From Escherichia phage vB_EcoM_H12: DNA of 64,000 nt. A program made the position numbers and the translations under genes. The notes beneath the pieces are model-generated. The model saw only the letters and a list, made by a program, of their open reading frames with translations, was not told the origin of the DNA and did not search any database. Shown piece by piece: positions 11,089-16,114 of this stretch. The DNA lies in sequence record PP952733.1. One strand, given 5' to 3'. Each line of letters begins with the position of its first letter. Within the stretch, counting starts at the first letter, position 1.

Positions 11089-11165
11089 CTCTGTTTAGCT
11101 CAGCTTGGTAGAGCGTTCCGTTTGGGGCGGTAAGGCCGGAGGTTCAAGTCCTCCAACAGAGACCA
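11089..11165 (+). tRNA. tRNA-Pro (anticodon UGG)
   Basis: Cloverleaf folded by hand: 7-bp acceptor CTCTGTT/AACAGAG, anticodon loop TTTGGGG, T-arm GGAGG-TTCAAGT-CCTCC, CCA encoded. Confidence 0.85.
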
Positions 11166-11172
11166 AATTAAT

Positions 11173-11250
11173 GTTCCAGTAGACAAAATGGTAAAGTCAC
11201 CACTCTTTCAAAGTGGATATTTGAGGGTTCAAATCCCTTCTGGAACGCCA
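11173..11250 (+). tRNA. tRNA-Glu (anticodon UUC)
   Basis: Acceptor GTTCCAG/CTGGAAC, anticodon loop CTTTCAA, T-loop TTCAAAT, CCA encoded. Confidence 0.8.
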
Positions 11251-11257
11251 GTTTTGA

Positions 11258-11330
11258 CAGAAGACCAATTGCAGCAAACTTAATCTTATTCATCTGACAC
11301 GAAATCGGACAAAGAAGAGATTTGGTCTGG
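11258..11330 (+). ncRNA. Stem-closed RNA-like element A (CAGAAGACCAAT...TTTGGTCTGG)
   Basis: Terminal inverted repeat AGACCAA/TTGGTCT enclosing about 50 nt; conserved CAGCAA next to 5' arm; one of four related elements. Confidence 0.4.
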
Positions 11331-11341
11331 TCATTAAGAAT

Positions 11342-11418
11342 TGCGGGTATAGAGAAAGGGCGTCTCACATGTCTCATTAGCATGGTATCGGCAGGTTCGA
11401 CTCCTGCACCCGCCTCCA
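11342..11418 (+). tRNA. tRNA with anticodon CAU (Met or Ile2 type)
   Basis: Anticodon loop CTCATTA, T-arm GCAGG-TTCGACT-CCTGC, CCA encoded; first acceptor pair mismatched. Confidence 0.75.
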
Positions 11419-11424
11419 AATTTA

Positions 11425-11488
11425 CAGAAGACCGTTTACAGCAATATTTATTAAATTTTTAGCGGAAAAATTGAAAGATACGGTCTGG
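11425..11488 (+). ncRNA. Stem-closed RNA-like element B (CAGAAGACCGTT...ACGGTCTGG)
   Basis: Terminal inverted repeat AGACCGT/ACGGTCT; compensatory changes relative to elements A and C. Confidence 0.4.
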
Positions 11489-11501
11489 TAATACTAAACA
11501 T

Positions 11502-11578
11502 GGTTAGGAAGCACATAAGGTATGTGCGGTCGCCTGTTAAGCGAATGGCACAGGGTTCGAATCCCTGACTAACCGCCA
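11502..11578 (+). tRNA. tRNA-Asn (anticodon GUU)
   Basis: Anticodon loop CTGTTAA, T-arm CAGGG-TTCGAAT-CCCTG, CCA encoded. Confidence 0.8.
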
Positions 11579-11587
11579 AATTTAAAT

Positions 11588-11675
11588 GTGTCGTTATCCC
11601 GTAGATGGTAGCGGTGGGGACTGTAAATCCCTTGTCATTGAGACTCGGTAGGTTCGACTCCTACACGGCACACCA
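11588..11675 (+). tRNA. tRNA-Tyr (anticodon GUA), long variable arm
   Basis: Anticodon loop CTGTAAA, about 14-nt variable arm, T-loop TTCGACT, CCA encoded. Confidence 0.8.
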
Positions 11676-11681
11676 AATAAA

Positions 11682-11759
11682 GGTTATGTAGTTTAATCTG
11701 GTTAAAATACTCCCCTGTCACGGGAGATGATGAGGGTTCAAATCCCTTCGTAACCGCCA
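11682..11759 (+). tRNA. tRNA-Asp (anticodon GUC)
   Basis: Anticodon stem CTCCC/GGGAG with loop CTGTCAC, T-loop TTCAAAT, CCA encoded. Confidence 0.8.
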
Positions 11760-11845
11760 AATTATAATAAGTATTTCAAAATGATGTTTGAGAGGGCTAT
11801 TCAGCCCCTCCCTTAAAGAGTTTTTACGAGTATTCTTTAAAGGAG

Positions 11846-11918
11846 CAGAAGACCAAATTCAGCAAGTTACTTAAAATTTCAAGCCAATTTAATTTTGAAA
11901 AATTTAAAACTTGGTCTG
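11846..11918 (+). ncRNA. Stem-closed RNA-like element C (CAGAAGACCAAA...TTGGTCTG)
   Basis: Terminal inverted repeat AGACCAA/TTGGTCT; conserved CAGCAA after 5' arm. Confidence 0.4.
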
Positions 11919-11932
11919 ACTCAACAAATTTA

Positions 11933-12064
11933 CAGAAGACCGTTTACAGCAAAACTTAAACAATCTATTTCTCCGGTAAAGAAAAGGCGAAGGTTCGATT
12001 CCTTCACTCGGCAGATGTCGAGTTGGTGTAATGGTAGCACTTAAGATGATAAACAACGGTCTGG
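11933..12064 (+). ncRNA. Stem-closed element D with permuted tRNA-like module (Y RNA-like candidate)
   Basis: Closing stem AGACCGTT/AACGGTCT; inside, in order: T-arm GAAGG-TTCGATT-CCTTC (11989-12005), 7-bp hairpin ACTCGGC-AGAT-GTCGAGT (12006-12023), D-arm-like TGGTGTAATGGTAGCAC; no anticodon arm or CCA. Confidence 0.45.
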
Positions 12065-12065
12065 T

Positions 12066-12209
12066 AATTATCTTTGTAGATAAGTTATTAAGCTTACTTG
12101 TGAGTATGCGACCACAAAGGGTGAAAGGGTAAATTCTAGATTTAAACCCAACAACGCACATCGCTACAGACCTTAAGCAAGTCTGGGTAGCTTATCTACA
12201 AAGATAATT
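12066..12209 (+). repeat. 19-bp perfect inverted repeat (AATTATCTTTGTAGATAAG / CTTATCTACAAAGATAATT) enclosing about 105 nt
   Basis: Arms at 12066-12084 and 12191-12209 are exact reverse complements; inner hairpin CAGAC-CTTAAGCAA-GTCTG. Confidence 0.6.
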
Positions 12210-12223
12210 TAATGGAAGTGTAG

Positions 12224-12289
12224 CAGAATGGTGATGCGGCAGACTTTTAATCTGACAGGCGATGGGTTCGAATCCCTCCACTTCTACCA
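12224..12289 (+). tRNA. tRNA-Lys (anticodon UUU)
   Basis: Acceptor GGAAGTG/CACTTCT, anticodon loop CTTTTAA, T-loop TTCGAAT (T-stem has two mismatches), CCA encoded. Confidence 0.7.
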
Positions 12290-12293
12290 ATAT

Positions 12294-12370
12294 GGTTCAG
12301 TCGCAGATAAGGTAATGCAGGGGTCTCATAAGCCCTATGAATGTGGGTTCGATTCCCATCTGAACCTCCA
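12294..12370 (+). tRNA. tRNA-Met (anticodon CAU), second copy
   Basis: Anticodon stem with three consecutive G-C pairs, loop CTCATAA, T-arm GTGGG-TTCGATT-CCCAT, CCA encoded. Confidence 0.75.
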
Positions 12371-12371
12371 A

Positions 12372-12447
12372 GCTGGTATAGTTAAGAAGGTTATAACACT
12401 CCCCTGATAAGGGAACATCGGTGGTTCGATTCCACCTACCAGTACCA
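12372..12447 (+). tRNA. tRNA-Ile (anticodon GAU)
   Basis: Anticodon loop CTGATAA, T-arm GGTGG-TTCGATT-CCACC, CCA encoded. Confidence 0.8.
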
Positions 12448-12462
12448 ATTTCAATAAAGTTG

Positions 12463-12491
12463 TTGACATTGAGATGTGACCACTTTATAGT
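12463..12491 (+). promoter_or_regulatory. Sigma70-like promoter TTGACA-17-TATAGT inside tRNA array
   Basis: TTGACA at 12463-12468, TATAGT at 12486-12491, upstream A-tract. Confidence 0.55.
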
Positions 12492-12783
12492 AACTAAAAT
12501 ACTTCATAATATGTATAATTCAAACACCAATACATGAGCGTTAGACGTAACACAATGTGGGGAAATTTGTTGTACATATTCTGAATAGTTTTCGTTGCGT
12601 AGCGTCTATTTTGCAAATTTAAAATAAATGCAAACGACAATGTTTTTCTGGCAGTAGCTTGATAGGCTAAACACCAGTGAGGTCTTCCAATCCCTCATCA
12701 AAGAATTTGGCGTACTAGCCCACGGTATGATTAATAAGGTGGGCATCTTTAAGTACTTTCTAAGAGAGTCTTTAAAGATTAAT

Positions 12784-12860
12784 GCACCCTTAGTTCAATT
12801 GGATAGAGCAACGGTCTTCTAAATCGTTAGTTACAGGTTCGAATCCTGTAGGGTGTGCCA
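12784..12860 (+). tRNA. tRNA-Arg (anticodon UCU)
   Basis: Acceptor GCACCCT/AGGGTGT, anticodon stem ACGGT/ATCGT with loop CTTCTAA, T-loop TTCGAAT, CCA encoded. Confidence 0.8.
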
Positions 12861-13001
12861 AATAGTTAGCAGATTGCTTAGACGACCTTATCGGGTCTCC
12901 GTGTAAGGAGGTGGTCTGTATCTCATGTTTCCAGAACATGTAAATAATCTGAGAAGGGGCTTTACAGTGTTGCGAAAATACGGTAAGCTTCGAATTATAG
13001 T

Positions 13002-13084
13002 GTGGGACGATGTTAAGACTCTAAGGCATGAGCAACGGCCTCCAAAACCGTTTCAAAGGGGTTCAACTCCTCCGTCCCATGCCA
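13002..13084 (+). tRNA. tRNA-Trp-like (anticodon CCA), atypical expanded D region
   Basis: Acceptor GTGGGAC/GTCCCAT, anticodon loop CTCCAAA, T-arm AGGGG-TTCAACT-CCTCC, CCA encoded; about 26 nt between acceptor and anticodon stem. Confidence 0.45.
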
Positions 13085-13097
13085 AAGTCTTATTAGG

Positions 13098-13185
13098 GGT
13101 AGGTAGCGGCTAATGGCAGCCAAACAGTCTTGAAAACTGTTGCCACTGTAGAGATACGGTGAGGGTTCGACTCCTTTACTTACCG
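13098..13185 (+). tRNA. tRNA-Ser (anticodon UGA), long variable arm
   Basis: Anticodon stem ACAGT/ACTGT with loop CTTGAAA, long variable arm, T-loop TTCGACT; CCA not encoded. Confidence 0.75.
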
Positions 13186-13340
13186 CCTAATAAGATTTAA
13201 AACCAAGCTTCATTCGGATGTTGCTTTGGTATCCCTCGTGTATTGTCGTACACAAGTAAAGCACCTAGTAGGTGTCACGGAGAAGAGATAATATCAAGCT
13301 CTCCAAAGGTTCTAGTCACCGGATTAAACAAGACTATGCA

Positions 13341-13361
13341 AAGACCTATTTAGGTCTTTTT
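13341..13361 (+). terminator. Terminator-like hairpin inside tRNA array
   Basis: AAGACCT-ATTT-AGGTCTT followed by TTT; AT-rich stem so probably weak. Confidence 0.4.
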
Positions 13362-13440
13362 AGAGGGCTTCTAAGGTTATTACAGCTTGTTGTGGAACCT
13401 TGTTGCTTAGGTTCTTAGAAGTTCTCTAAAAAGATTTAAT

Positions 13441-13518
13441 GGGAGATTGACGGTAATTGGTAAACCTACCATCCTTAGAAGTTGGTGTTTGAGGGTTCGA
13501 ATCCCTTGTCTCCTACCA
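13441..13518 (+). tRNA. tRNA with anticodon UAG (leucine-type anticodon) but short variable arm
   Basis: Acceptor GGGAGAT/GTCTCCT, anticodon loop CTTAGAA, 5-nt variable loop, T-arm GAGGG-TTCGAAT-CCCTT, A73, CCA encoded. Confidence 0.7.
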
Positions 13519-13525
13519 AATTAAT

Positions 13526-13601
13526 GCAGGTGTAGCAAAATGGTTATGCGGCTGACTCTTAATCAGTAAGACGATGGGTTCAATTCCCTCCACCTGTACC
13601 A
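13526..13601 (+). tRNA. tRNA-Lys (anticodon CUU)
   Basis: Close paralog of the UUU tRNA at 12224; anticodon loop CTCTTAA; CCA encoded. Confidence 0.75.
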
Positions 13602-13605
13602 AATT

Positions 13606-13681
13606 GGGGTCATAGTTTATATGGTTAAAATTCGAGTTTTGCAAACTTGGGAACTGAGTTCAATTCTCAGTGACTCCACCA
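13606..13681 (+). tRNA. tRNA-Ala (anticodon UGC)
   Basis: Acceptor GGGGTCA/TGACTCC, anticodon loop TTTGCAA, T-arm CTGAG-TTCAATT-CTCAG, CCA encoded. Confidence 0.8.
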
Positions 13682-13687
13682 ATTAGT

Positions 13688-13762
13688 GCATCCATAGTTT
13701 AAACGGGAAAATTACAGTCTTCCAAACTGAGGTTGAGGGTTCGATTCCCTCTGGATGCTCCA
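13688..13762 (+). tRNA. tRNA-Gly (anticodon UCC)
   Basis: Acceptor GCATCCA/TGGATGC, anticodon loop CTTCCAA, T-arm GAGGG-TTCGATT-CCCTC, CCA encoded. Confidence 0.8.
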
Positions 13763-13769
13763 AATTAAT

Positions 13770-13845
13770 GCTCCTATCGTATAATTGGCTATTACGGTTG
13801 CCTTGTAAGCAACTTATCAGGGTTCGAATCCTTGTGGGAGCACCA
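13770..13845 (+). tRNA. tRNA-Thr (anticodon UGU)
   Basis: Acceptor GCTCCTA/TGGGAGC, anticodon stem GTTGC/GCAAC with loop CTTGTAA, T-loop TTCGAAT, CCA encoded. Confidence 0.8.
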
Positions 13846-13850
13846 ATTCA

Positions 13851-13936
13851 GAGGTCAAGTGAAAGACCGCTTTGAGTCAACTGAAGACCGTAACAAATCC
13901 CACGGAGTTGAGTTAGCGGCACAACTTCAGACCTCT
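13851..13936 (+). ncRNA. Structured hairpin element between tRNA-Thr and tRNA-Val
   Basis: 6-bp closing inverted repeat GAGGTC/GACCTC around about 75 nt with nested complementary segments (TCAACT/AGTTGA) and a GAAGACCGT motif; no canonical T-loop. Confidence 0.35.
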
Positions 13937-13941
13937 TTCAT

Positions 13942-14016
13942 ACTCGCTTAGTTTATATGGTAAAACATCACCCTTACAAGATGAAGAAAAAGGTTCAAGC
14001 CCTTTAGTGAGTACCA
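13942..14016 (+). tRNA. tRNA-Val (anticodon UAC)
   Basis: Acceptor ACTCGCT/AGTGAGT, anticodon loop CTTACAA, T-arm AAAGG-TTCAAGC-CCTTT, CCA encoded. Confidence 0.7.
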
Positions 14017-14017
14017 T

Positions 14018-14095
14018 GTTCCAGTATCCCAATTGGCAGAGGATGCAAGCTCAAACCTTGTACTAGTGACGGTTCGAATCCGTCTTGGAACACCA
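14018..14095 (+). tRNA. tRNA with anticodon CAA (leucine-type anticodon) but short variable arm
   Basis: Acceptor GTTCCAG/TTGGAAC, anticodon stem GCAAG/CTTGT with loop CTCAAAC, 6-nt variable loop, T-arm GACGG-TTCGAAT-CCGTC, A73, CCA encoded. Confidence 0.7.
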
Positions 14096-14100
14096 ATTTT

Positions 14101-14176
14101 GCAGGATTAGTTCAAATGGATAGAGCAACAGTCTACGAAGCTGTTAATAGGGGTTCGAATCCCTTATCCTGCGCCA
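14101..14176 (+). tRNA. tRNA-Arg (anticodon ACG)
   Basis: Acceptor GCAGGAT/ATCCTGC, anticodon stem ACAGT/GCTGT with loop CTACGAA, T-loop TTCGAAT, CCA encoded. Confidence 0.8.
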
Positions 14177-14195
14177 ATTTAAAGAGGCTATTTAG

Positions 14196-14753
14196 ATGAG
14201 ATATTTGAAGTATGCTTCATGGATTTTCTTAGCTTTGTTAGAGCCATTTGCAGCAATCTTAGCAGTTATCTTAGCACCTTTTGTAGTTCCATTCTACAGT
14301 GAAAAGAAAGGACACTTACCTTTCGGCTTCAGATGGATGGAAACATATGACAACCCAATTGATGGTGATGAAGGTCATGTTGAACGATGGGCTAAGATTA
14401 GAAAGATTGGTAAGCTTGGTGTCTATATGCAGAGAGTTGGTTGGCTCTGGAGAAACAAAGCTTATAACTTCTCTTACCATGTGTTAGGAAGAGATGTAAA
14501 AGATGTTACTAAGTGGAAAGGTAATATCAATGTAAGTTCTAACCCTGAAGATAATCAGACAGGTTATCTCCTAATGTGGAACAGTAATGCTTGGGGATTA
14601 TTCGCTTTTATCCCATCAATTAAAGTCTTTGGTAAGCAATTCTACTGGAGAATTTATGTTGGATGGAAACTTAAAAGTGTTGTTCCAAAAGAAAGAGCAT
14701 TCTCAAGGGAAAGAGTTATGTTGGCATTCTTTATTCATCCACTAAGAAAGTAA
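14196..14753 (+). CDS. putative membrane protein (185 aa) encoded inside the tRNA array
   Basis: AAAGAGG RBS; N-terminal hydrophobic helix (WIFLALLEPFAAILAVILAPFVVPF); Trp-rich. Confidence 0.55.
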   Translation: MRYLKYASWIFLALLEPFAAILAVILAPFVVPFYSEKKGHLPFGFRWMETYDNPIDGDEGHVERWAKIRKIGKLGVYMQRVGWLWRNKAYNFSYHVLGRDVKDVTKWKGNINVSSNPEDNQTGYLLMWNSNAWGLFAFIPSIKVFGKQFYWRIYVGWKLKSVVPKERAFSRERVMLAFFIHPLRK

Positions 14754-14761
14754 AGATTTAA

Positions 14762-14837
14762 AGGGGATTAGTTTACAAGGTTAAAACCTCGGTCTTTGAA
14801 ATCGAAGAAGTTGGTTCAATTCCAACATCCCCCGCCA
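14762..14837 (+). tRNA. tRNA-Gln (anticodon UUG)
   Basis: Anticodon stem TCGGT/ATCGA with loop CTTTGAA, T-arm GTTGG-TTCAATT-CCAAC, CCA encoded; first acceptor pair mismatched. Confidence 0.75.
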
Positions 14838-14839
14838 AT

Positions 14840-14918
14840 GCTCCATTACTCCAATTGGTAGAGAGGCCAGACTTAAAATCTGTGTTATGTATCGGTTCGA
14901 ATCCGATATGGAGTACCA
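14840..14918 (+). tRNA. tRNA with anticodon UAA (leucine-type anticodon) but short variable arm
   Basis: Acceptor GCTCCAT/ATGGAGT, anticodon loop CTTAAAA, about 7-nt variable loop, T-arm ATCGG-TTCGAAT-CCGAT, A73, CCA encoded. Confidence 0.7.
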
Positions 14919-14923
14919 AATTT

Positions 14924-14999
14924 AGCGGTATAGCATAACTGGCAATGCAGCAGTCTCTGAAGCTGTCTTATTAAGGTTCAAATCCTTATGCCGCTGCCA
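14924..14999 (+). tRNA. tRNA-Gln (anticodon CUG)
   Basis: D-stem GCAT/ATGC, anticodon stem GCAGT/GCTGT with loop CTCTGAA, T-loop TTCAAAT, CCA encoded. Confidence 0.7.
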
Positions 15000-15030
15000 C
15001 TTCTAAGGATTCTTACGAGAGTCCTTAAAT

Positions 15031-15106
15031 GTGGCCTTATCATAAATGGTAATGACCCATGCTGTGAACATGGTCTATACGGGTTCAAATCCCGTAGGTC
15101 ACCCCA
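15031..15106 (+). tRNA. tRNA-His (anticodon GUG)
   Basis: Acceptor GTGGCCT/AGGTCAC, anticodon stem CCATG/CATGG with loop CTGTGAA, T-arm ACGGG-TTCAAAT-CCCGT, CCA encoded. Confidence 0.8.
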
Positions 15107-15111
15107 ATTTA

Positions 15112-15188
15112 TAGTCCAAGTAGCTTATATGGTTAAAGCGCGTGTCTGAAAAACATGAGAAGAGGGTTCAAATCCCACTGGACTACCA
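15112..15188 (+). tRNA. tRNA-Phe (anticodon GAA)
   Basis: Acceptor TAGTCCA/TGGACTA, anticodon loop CTGAAAA, T-loop TTCAAAT. Confidence 0.75.
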
Positions 15189-15204
15189 ATTTCAAAGGTG
15201 CTTA

Positions 15205-15939
15205 ATGAAAGAGATGACAGAACAAGGTAAGGAGATTTTTAATCTCTTAAAAACTGGTAAAGGGTTATCTAACCCCCTTATTACTGGTGCAGCAGTTCTC
15301 GGTGGAACAGTAGCTGCCTCTACATCACTTGTAAGCTCTATTAGCTCTGTAACAGACCCTACAATAAAGGATAAGCTTATTGCTGCTGGACTTACAACAG
15401 TTCTGCTTAACAGCTTTACCACAAGTCTGACAAGCACTACATCAACTACTAAAACACTGACAGATTACGGTCAAAAGTCCATTGATGAGTTTTCATCACG
15501 TATGCAGGTAGCAAAAGGTTATTCTAATGTTATGGGTGCAGCAGGTGAACAAGTTGGCTGTACACCATTTAGTGGTATTATGGGTGTTGCTACAGAGTAC
15601 GGTCAAAAAGCTATTGACACAATTAACAGCACACTAGACGGTGTTAATGATGTATTAAGTGACTTACAAGACGCTATTGACAAAGGTCTTGATACTATTT
15701 CTGATTTAGCTAACCAAGCTGTTAGTAAGATTAATGAAGGTATCTCGAAGATTACAGCTTATGCAGATGAAGTTGTGCAGATGATTGAAGAAGAAGCTGC
15801 CCTTATTGCAGAGTACCTTAAAACAAATATCAATGGGTTCTTAGCAGGTATCTTACCAGACTGGTTTGATGATGCTTGTAAAACTGGTGTAATTGATACT
15901 ATTGCAACACCAGAGATGAAGAACGCATTACAGAAATAA
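15205..15939 (+). CDS. hypothetical Ser/Thr-rich protein (244 aa) inside the tRNA array
   Basis: Start moved from track 15142 to ATG 15205 (AAAGG RBS) so it does not overlap tRNA-Phe; low-complexity S/T segment. Confidence 0.5.
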   Translation: MKEMTEQGKEIFNLLKTGKGLSNPLITGAAVLGGTVAASTSLVSSISSVTDPTIKDKLIAAGLTTVLLNSFTTSLTSTTSTTKTLTDYGQKSIDEFSSRMQVAKGYSNVMGAAGEQVGCTPFSGIMGVATEYGQKAIDTINSTLDGVNDVLSDLQDAIDKGLDTISDLANQAVSKINEGISKITAYADEVVQMIEEEAALIAEYLKTNINGFLAGILPDWFDDACKTGVIDTIATPEMKNALQK

Positions 15940-15941
15940 AT

Positions 15942-16034
15942 GGAAGATTAACCCTAAAAGGTAAGGGAGCAGTTTGCTAAACTGCCAGTAGCTGAGAAAT
16001 CGGTGTACCAGTTCAAGTCTGGTATCTTCCTCCA
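15942..16034 (+). tRNA. tRNA-Ser (anticodon GCU), long variable arm
   Basis: Acceptor GGAAGAT/ATCTTCC, anticodon stem GCAGT/ACTGC with loop TTGCTAA, long variable arm, T-arm ACCAG-TTCAAGT-CTGGT, CCA encoded. Confidence 0.8.
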
Positions 16035-16038
16035 ATTT

Positions 16039-16114
16039 GAATCCGTGACAGAAATGGATATGTACCTGTCTGCAAAACAGGTTTATAAGGGTTCGAGTCC
16101 CTTCGGATTCTCCA
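16039..16114 (+). tRNA. tRNA-Cys (anticodon GCA)
   Basis: Acceptor GAATCCG/CGGATTC, anticodon stem CCTGT/ACAGG with loop CTGCAAA, T-loop TTCGAGT, CCA encoded. Confidence 0.8.

Follow-up and report, generated by a model that had tools for sequence, protein, structure and literature searches.

What fills the 96-nt spacer between two tRNA genes in a phage operon where such genes mostly follow each other at distances of only 1 to 8 nt? The spacer (13846-13941) lies within a 64,000-nt stretch of Escherichia phage vB_EcoM_H12 (PP952733.1), the whole of which we call the window and to which all positions refer, and it runs from the CCA end of tRNA-Thr(UGU) at 13845 to the start of tRNA-Val(UAC) at 13942. 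The window comes from a Felixounavirus, i.e., a Felix O1-like myovirus of the Ounavirinae, and the 1 kb around the spacer is 95% to 99% identical to many Escherichia and Salmonella phages of this genus. A sequence-only reading had described the spacer as a nested hairpin lacking tRNA features and had proposed either a small structured RNA or a processing signal. We find that the entire spacer is taken up by an element of ca. 86 nt that is a conserved, folded non-coding RNA, a real but modest new phage RNA whose inner fold probably differs from the nested hairpin drawn previously.

Conservation, distribution and supported helices

The element is under strong purifying selection. Across an alignment of 30 distinct copies of the surrounding 1.7 kb, its nucleotide diversity (pi) is 0.038, compared to 0.147 for tRNA-Thr, 0.10 for tRNA-Val, 0.197 for the spacer at 13188-13440 and 0.22 at the third positions of DUF7338 codons, so that variation is about five-fold below that of spacer or third-codon sites and also below that of the flanking tRNAs. 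A core stretch of 27 nt (13877-13903) reaches a pi of only 0.014, and the 24 nt at 13877-13900 differ between Felix-like and Avunavirus copies merely by a variable base at 13899 and a singleton G-to-A change at 13890 (locus L038). This invariance is not an artefact of retrieval because the same core is found in loci that were fetched via tRNA-Gly or via the 3' part of the element.

Using blastn, we found the element as a single copy per genome in 259 phage records, of which 253 belong to the Ounavirinae (Felixounavirus, Mooglevirus and Suspvirus groups; 93% to 100% identity) and the remaining six to the genus Avunavirus in the Vequintavirinae (ca. 81% identity). In Avunavirus, it follows tRNA-Gly(UCC) and precedes a protein gene whose coding sequence (CDS) is 35 nt away, with no downstream tRNA; this block is syntenic with the Felix segment from tRNA-Gly over the element to the DUF7338 gene but lacks tRNA-Thr, Val, Leu and Arg. 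Kolesnikvirus, another genus of the Ounavirinae, has no copy anywhere in its tRNA region, and its Thr-Val gap measures only 6 nt. Since the element is kept while neighbouring tRNAs are gained and lost, it seems to be under selection in its own right rather than as an adjunct to the Thr/Val junction. The block of tRNA-Gly(UCC), element and DUF7338 membrane-protein gene (window 14196-14753; L001 1847-2389) shows ca. 76% nucleotide identity between Felix-like phages and Avunavirus, which argues for exchange between the two subfamilies. DUF7338 is also widespread in T4-like phages of Klebsiella and Enterobacter, and we rejected a specific tie between the element and this downstream gene because hundreds of T4-like phages carry DUF7338 without the element.

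Exact or degenerate pattern scans (four on viral contigs, one on metagenome contigs and one on genome contigs) returned the Felix-like and Avunavirus copies, one diverged Ounavirinae-like copy (L044) and chance matches that were rejected by a covariance model of the element (R1). This model detected no further homologue in 77 seeded loci and nothing in the tRNA clusters of Kolesnikvirus and Erwinia phages or near the DUF7338 gene of RB43. The scan of genome contigs found no copy in bacterial genomes, and thus there is no sign of a host origin. None of the inspected records annotates the element as RNA, though several GenBank entries place spurious "hypothetical proteins" over it (e.g., wV8 51A and HY02), and it goes unmentioned in the Felix O1 genome paper, a functional screen of SUSP1 and a retron paper that tested Felixounavirus species.

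The + strand RNA has a minimum free energy of -30.0 kcal/mol, compared to -18.8 +/- 2.95 kcal/mol for 200 dinucleotide shuffles, none of which folds as well (z = -3.8), in line with the previously proposed structured nature of the locus, and the minus strand folds about equally well (z = -3.2). It is the pattern of substitutions among 20 distinct variants (alignment A3, in which column n is window position 13850+n) that singles out particular helices. The closing stem GAGGTC/GACCTC (13851-13856/13930-13935) had been recognized by the sequence-only reading; it is extended by A13850-U13936 to 7 bp, and this stem (P1; 13850-13856/13930-13936) shows compensatory change from G-C to U-A in Avunavirus (GAUGUC/GACAUC) with a G·U intermediate in L045. 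Helix P2 (13867-13870/13916-13919; CCGC/GCGG) similarly shows a double change from G-C to A-U in L039 (CCAC/GUGG) and a G·U intermediate in L060 (CCGC/GUGG). Both helices are thus supported by covariation. Together with a third helix, P3 (see below), they are paired in 99.4% of 340 alignment cells, compared to 28% to 42% for slid-helix controls, with double changes at three pairs and a covariation score that was reached by 0 of 500 shuffles. Twenty cells of these helices are G·U pairs that would be A·C mismatches if read on the minus strand, and the functional molecule is therefore the + strand RNA.

Inner fold, proposed mechanism and its alternatives

Inside P1, the tetranucleotide GUUG at 13907-13910 has two possible partners, i.e., an upstream CAAC in a nested fold with UCAACU/AGUUGA (model A) or a downstream CAAC in helix P3 (GGAGUUG/CAACUUC), which combines with P1 and P2 into model B. 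P2 becomes a pseudoknot when P3 forms, since the loop of P3 contains the GCGG strand of P2. Four of the seven P3 pairs vary while all 140 cells stay paired: A-U is replaced by G-C in Avunavirus, and a G·U pair turned into G-C in at least four lineages and into A-U in wV8. The two P3 loop segments have fixed lengths (5 and 2 nt) despite their variable sequence, as does the one-nucleotide spacer (A) that separates P3 from P1, and model B is the minimum-energy fold of the Avunavirus and L044 copies. P2 and P3 interleave as in an H-type pseudoknot or loop-docking fold, each with pair-preserving changes, though P2 also fits the nested fold and the evidence for P3 consists of few independent events. 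The substitutions therefore appear to favour P3 over the inner pairings drawn previously without settling the matter, and it is somewhat better than an even bet that P3 forms, either alone or as one state of a switch. A tentative helix P5 of three pairs, GUG/CAC in Felix-like phages and AUG/CAU in Avunavirus (one compensatory event), may close the 5' domain. The parts of the element and its neighbours are listed below.

Table. Parts of the spacer element and the flanking tRNA genes, with positions in the window.
Feature	Position	Strand	Remarks
tRNA-Thr(UGU), upstream neighbour	13770-13845	+	CCA encoded; ARAGORN; Rfam tRNA model 58.4 bits
Leader AUUC	13846-13849	+	4 nt from tRNA-Thr CCA to closing stem; from sequence; size like ordinary inter-tRNA spacers here; AUUC, AUUU, GUUC or AUUA in relatives
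P1 5' strand (A)GAGGUC	13850-13856	+	pairs with 13930-13936; 98.3% of cells paired
Junction AAGUGAAAGA	13857-13866	+	GUG at 13859-13861 is the tentative P5 5' strand
P2 5' strand CCGC	13867-13870	+	pairs with GCGG at 13916-13919; 100% of cells paired
Variable linker	13871-13876	+	UUUGAG, UUGAG, UGGUG or UUGGG among close relatives
Invariant core UCAACUGAAGACCGUAACAAAU(N)C	13877-13900	+	24 nt; includes GAAGACCGU and the TCAACT and CCGT of the sequence-only reading
CAC, tentative P5 3' strand	13901-13903	+	CAU in Avunavirus
P3 5' strand GGAGUUG	13904-13910	+	pairs with 13922-13928; overlaps the previously noted AGTTGA (13906-13911)
P3 loop, 5' part AGUUA	13911-13915	+	length constant, sequence variable (AGUUA, AGUUU, CGUUU, UGGUA)
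P2 3' strand GCGG	13916-13919	+	inside the P3 loop
P3 3' strand CAACUUC	13922-13928	+	second CAAC copy competing for GUUG
P1 3' strand GACCUC(U)	13930-13936	+	
Trailer UUCAU	13937-13941	+	5 nt before tRNA-Val; no CCA; varies among relatives
tRNA-Val(UAC), downstream neighbour	13942-14016	+	ARAGORN

Our preferred explanation, to which we assign a probability of about 0.5, is that the element is the gene for a structured non-coding RNA of ca. 86 nt that occupies a "tRNA slot" of the operon, is cut out of the tRNA precursor and acts in trans. As judged from its sequence context, the element sits on the + strand within one transcription unit: sigma-70-like promoter sites lie upstream of it (10942, 11033 and 12463), and a strong terminator-like site on the + strand is not reached until 16277. 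The RNA would be co-transcribed with the tRNAs. In the established pathway of tRNA processing in E. coli, RNase P acts at tRNA 5' ends while other nucleases mature the 3' side; here, RNase P would cut at the 5' end of tRNA-Val and thereby set the 3' end of the spacer RNA, and RNase E together with 3' exonucleases would release its 5' side behind the CCA of tRNA-Thr. The released RNA would survive because both its ends are locked in P1 with overhangs of only 4 to 5 nt, and we infer that it exists as a discrete, stable molecule. Hairpin P3 would form its 3' half, P2 would link this hairpin to the 5' region as a pseudoknot or by loop docking, and the invariant 24-nt segment at 13877-13900 would be displayed between the two. 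This segment would then bind, in trans, a protein or RNA of host or phage that is conserved across Escherichia, Salmonella, Shigella and Citrobacter hosts. A small structured RNA, one of the two possibilities named by the sequence-only reading, is consistent with the purifying selection, the compensatory changes in the closing stem and one inner helix, the strand-specific G·U pairs and the presence of the element in a second subfamily.

Several observations weigh against this explanation. The literature on Felix O1-like phages yielded no expression, transcriptome, Northern or end-mapping data for the element, and a scan of both strands of the window for antisense partners of the core gave a best duplex of -22.6 kcal/mol, compared to -21.5 to -26.9 kcal/mol for shuffled cores. 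For Felixounavirus copies, model A reaches -21.7 to -27.8 kcal/mol (85-nt core) versus -14.5 kcal/mol for the nested part of model B, a value that precedes a P2 pseudoknot term of uncertain size. The sample is shallow, with 20 to 22 distinct variants in three lineages of any depth and mostly singletons, and the truly discriminating P3 events give only about p = 0.03-0.06 by our own count. Singleton breaks also occur in the well-supported P1 (L049, L145 and L151), and those in the inner helices of model A therefore weigh little.

The best surviving alternative, which we nevertheless regard as unlikely, is a plain long and irregular nested hairpin (P1, CCGC/GCGG, UCAACU/AGUUGA and CCGU/ACGG) that would work in cis as a processing or insulating module, e.g., as an RNase III-type stem or as a barrier against 3' exonucleases that keeps the precursors of Thr and Val apart, before being discarded. 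Together with a CCGCU/AGCGG helix, this hairpin of the sequence-only reading is indeed the minimum-energy structure of Felixounavirus copies, with an ensemble probability of ca. 0.99 for UCAACU/AGUUGA, and it includes P1 and P2 as the helices with the clearest compensation. The sequences that had been assigned to its inner stems are present (TCAACT at 13877-13882 and AGTTGA at 13906-13911; CCGT at 13888-13891 and ACGG at 13902-13905), though only four of the six bases of the proposed GACCGT arm can pair. Its inner pairs survive between the clades by wobble, with U·G in place of U-A and G·U in place of G-C in Avunavirus, and its stem, purine bulge (G)AAGA and CCGU stem recur in four hairpins at 11258-12066. 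The substitutions nonetheless favour a different pairing: the helices specific to the nested fold, UCAACU/AGUUGA and CCGU/ACGG among them, show no double compensation and contain 9, 2 and 2 broken cells (13 in total), an AAGU/ACUU helix is destroyed in Avunavirus, and the changes of U76 to C in Avunavirus and, recurrently, of U77 to C are left unexplained by this fold but complete pairs in P3. A processing signal, the other possibility named previously, also appears less likely in view of the mostly 1- to 8-nt junctions elsewhere in the operon and the 6-nt Thr-Val gap of Kolesnikvirus, which do without such a module, and of Avunavirus, which retains the element without any downstream tRNA. Moreover, the best-conserved 24 nt are not shown to be paired, and an invariant sequence of this length would be unusual where double-strandedness alone suffices.

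We consider it improbable that the element is a two-state switch in which GUUG at 13907-13910 alternates between CAAC at 13878-13881 and the downstream CAAC, with a balance that would be set by a ligand, a protein, temperature or co-transcriptional timing. Every copy does contain both mutually exclusive pairings, GUUG and both CAAC copies are essentially invariant, the state preferred by the energies in Felixounavirus is not the one they prefer in Avunavirus and L044, and there is a second internal repeat (AAGACCGC at 13863-13870 and AAGACCGU at 13884-13891). However, the downstream sequence offers no consistent expression platform, for Felix-like phages have a tRNA there and Avunavirus has a CDS at a distance of 35 nt. 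The element also received no terminator-like call and matched no riboswitch family, and in Felixounavirus the two states lie far apart in energy for a balanced switch.

Even less credible is a functionless relic, i.e., the decayed remains of a tRNA gene or of one of the 11258-12066 hairpins, as could be suggested by the tRNA-sized slot with tRNA-like spacing on both sides, by GAAGACCGU that is common to two members of this family and by the mosaic nature of the operon with its many insertions and deletions among relatives. A relic should not be several-fold less diverse than the neighbouring tRNAs and neutral-like sites, nor be kept in two subfamilies while adjacent tRNAs come and go, and the element gave no signal as a tRNA at E<=10, lacks the GGUCUG 3' arm of the family and yielded no covariance-model cross-hit. 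Finally, a small protein-coding gene or a DNA-level site (for protein binding or packaging) can practically be dismissed: open reading frames (ORFs) of 24 to 39 codons do cross the region and some records annotate a "hypothetical protein" there, but the longest begin inside tRNA-Thr or extend into tRNA-Val and 1-nt length variation at 13871-13876 and in both flanks among >95% identical genomes shifts every frame and thus leaves no conserved one. The substitutions preserve pairing, with G·U pairs that are valid only as + strand RNA, and the minus strand folds no better.

The hairpin family at 11258-12066 and other parts of the operon

The operon at 11089-16114 comprises 26 tRNA genes as called by ARAGORN, all on the + strand, and contains a family of four hairpins (11258-11335, 11425-11490, 11846-11921 and 11933-12066) that is defined by CAGAAGACC..CAGCAA paired to ..GGUCUG, with a common closing module ACAGAAGACC..CAGCAA / ..GGUCUGGUAAU; from copy to copy, the stem of this module shows covariation (CCAA/UUGG versus CCGU/ACGG). 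The sequence-only reading had likened the spacer element to this family because of the motif GAAGACCGT, which is indeed present at 13883-13891 and recurs as an exact + strand 9-mer in two family members (starting at 11427 and 11935, compared to 13883 in the element); its reverse complement is part of the tRNA-Arg(UCU) anticodon arm and has one further occurrence in a CDS far away. By our estimate, a single shared 9-mer between the 88-nt element and ca. 400 nt of family sequence has a chance probability of ca. 0.1 to 0.3, which is not significant. Beyond it, the proposed likeness found no support: GAAGACCGU is all that is common, the element lacks the 3' arm ACGGUCUGGUAAU / GGUCUG and the CAGCAA box, and it has no counterpart of the pairing between the 5' box CAGAAGACCNNUUNCAGCAA and the 3' box NNGGUCUG of the family. 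Model R1 scores 113 bits on the element itself and, with filters off and at E<=10, has no hit in 11258-12066, its next hit in the window being one of 17.8 bits elsewhere. The CCGU/ACGG stem of the element has no substitution support, unlike the family stems that covary between paralogues. When drawn in the nested fold, the element shares a stem, a purine bulge and a CCGU stem with the family, a loose likeness that is a lead rather than kinship, and both are confined to the Felix-like clade; neither was seen in the tRNA cluster of Kolesnikvirus.

The fourth family copy at 11933-12066 encloses an inside-out tRNA in which an anticodon-like hairpin comes first, followed in order by a perfect T-arm (GAAGGUUCGAUUCCUUC), a 7-bp stem that resembles an acceptor and is capped by a tetraloop, and a D-arm, and by its sequence it appears to be a circularly permuted, uncharged tRNA-like RNA. 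Its T-arm, D-arm and closing module are fixed among relatives, in which fully compensated alternatives (ACACG/CGUGU; ACCCUUC/GAAGGGU) take the place of the capped acceptor stem. The 3' arms of the family (CAACGGUCUGGUAAU; 11478-11491 and 12054-12067) are similar to the anticodon arm of the phage's own tRNA-Arg(UCU) in its 5' half (GCAACGGUCUUCUAAAU, 12808-12824), and the GAAGACCGU of the spacer element is the exact complement of ACGGUCUUC in this tRNA.

The operon is a mosaic with many insertions and deletions between relatives. Indels of 110, 240 and 424 bp inside 13400-14400 all fall outside the element and correspond to a micro-ORF between tRNA-Leu and tRNA-Arg, a small CDS ahead of DUF7338 and an insertion between tRNA-Gly and tRNA-Thr in Felix O1. 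The element is not part of a mobile cassette. The first type of insert, as found in phage DE17, measures 109 bp, lies between tRNA-Leu(CAA) and tRNA-Arg(ACG) (L138 904-1012, corresponding to window 14096-14100) and features a ribosome-binding site and a micro-ORF of ca. 32 codons (MSNKSIAKKFIASFKNRRKNNSCEKLYGVLVGK). Other relatives have a small CDS ahead of DUF7338 or genes for HNH endonucleases within the tRNA array.

Elsewhere in the operon, two inverted repeats in non-tRNA gaps may be further structured spacers: one of 22 nt at 12066-12087 / 12188-12209 (95% complementary, arms 100 nt apart) and one of 26 nt at 13350-13375 / 13414-13439 (85% complementary, arms 38 nt apart). A segment at 12594-12783 resembles the messenger part of transfer-messenger RNA (tmRNA) in that GCAAACGACAATGTTTTTCTGGCAGTAGCTTGATAG would give a tag ANDNVFLAVA, with two stops behind it, that comes close to the ssrA tags of bacteria. 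It matches the tmRNA and permuted-tmRNA models of Rfam only weakly (14 and 20 bits) and was not called as tmRNA by ARAGORN; a strong promoter-like site (TTGACA-17-TATAGT) lies upstream at 12463, tRNA-Arg(UCU) follows directly, and the segment is conserved in Kolesnikvirus (L033 3577-3993). A tRNA-like gene at 12998-13087 likewise received no ARAGORN call and scores under the threshold of the Rfam tRNA model, with 23 bits for the tRNA-Sec model. It has an acceptor GGGAC/GUCCC, the T-arm GGGGUUCAACUCCUC, a 3' CCA, a CCA (Trp) in the anticodon loop and an oversized D region, and Kolesnikvirus carries an annotated tRNA-Trp between tRNA-Gly and tRNA-Thr.

Comparison with known RNAs of tRNA operons

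No family of Rfam 15 overlaps the element at gathering thresholds or, with permissive filters, at E<=10, in a search that covered tRNA, tRNA-Sec, YrlA, tmRNA and all ribozymes and riboswitches. The absence of tRNA features that the sequence-only reading had noted was borne out, with no ARAGORN call and no match of the Rfam models for tRNA (RF00005) or tRNA-Sec (RF01852) over 13846-13941 even at E<=10. Like a tRNA, the element sits in a tRNA-sized slot with the spacing of real tRNAs and has a terminal stem of 6 to 7 bp, and model B would add a loose likeness in that a hairpin abuts the 3' strand of the terminal stem and its loop pairs with the stretch right behind the 5' strand of this stem, in a way that resembles the contact of T-loop and D-loop. 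Unlike a tRNA, it lacks a T-loop sequence, a D-arm or anticodon arm in register, and a CCA, which most tRNA genes of the operon encode; its closing stem is followed by UUUCAU here and by UCUAUC in Avunavirus. A hammerhead ribozyme was rejected as well, for CUGAAGA resembles the CUGANGA box by eye but a GAAA box after a stem II, as the order of hammerhead parts requires, is lacking, and no intrinsic terminator was called on either strand of 13846-13941, where the tail reads CUUUCAU.

Processing stems such as the RNase III sites of rRNA operons and phage T7 are conserved as structure and not as an invariant sequence of 24 nt. The element resembles them as a long irregular hairpin between mature segments of one precursor but differs in its setting, given that the other junctions of its operon have no such stem.

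Phage tRNA clusters are now being studied as counter-measures to host defences that cleave tRNAs, and it is conceivable, though a long shot, that the element is the first representative of a novel class of pseudoknotted phage RNAs in tRNA operons whose 24-nt face captures or misleads a host factor that handles tRNAs. If so, it would be an RNA device for counter-defence or host takeover, with RNase P, a modification enzyme or a defence nuclease that attacks tRNAs among its conceivable targets, and it might work jointly with the capped, circularly permuted tRNA-like RNA at 11933-12066. To our knowledge, the non-tRNA RNAs known from phage tRNA clusters, such as RNAC and RNAD of phage T4, have not been assigned a function in fifty years. 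The element is absent from Rfam and no surprise in kind but a clean and experimentally easy case of this long-neglected class, and it is tractable through hundreds of easily grown Escherichia and Salmonella phages that include therapeutic and typing phages of the Felix O1 group.

The closest parallel is indeed the tRNA region of T4, which yields the two small stable RNAs RNAC and RNAD of unknown role (PMC3014915; PMC9697503). Like these, the element would be a non-tRNA RNA of ca. 100 nt that is encoded on the same strand within the tRNA operon of a lytic coliphage, and its distance of 4 to 5 nt to the neighbouring tRNAs compares well to the 1 and 6 nt of RNAC and RNAD. The T4 RNAs (species 1 and species 2, respectively) are freed from the tRNA precursor by host processing enzymes and have been detected experimentally, whereas the RNA of the element is predicted from its sequence. 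They are also larger, with 139 and 119 nt compared to ca. 86 nt, and the folds differ; RNAC has a canonical T-arm (CCGGGUUCGAAUCCCGG) that the element lacks. In T4, rnaC (L063 2909-3047) is partly tRNA-like with this T-arm beside its 3' end, and the fold of RNAD is not significant (z = -0.8). Within the T4 tRNA region, model R1 scores no higher than 12 bits, at a site outside rnaC and rnaD, and there is no homology to either RNA. In our best reading, the element is therefore analogous but not homologous to RNAC and RNAD, and it would represent an unrelated second case of such RNAs that is short, present in a single copy and more tightly conserved than the tRNAs at its sides.

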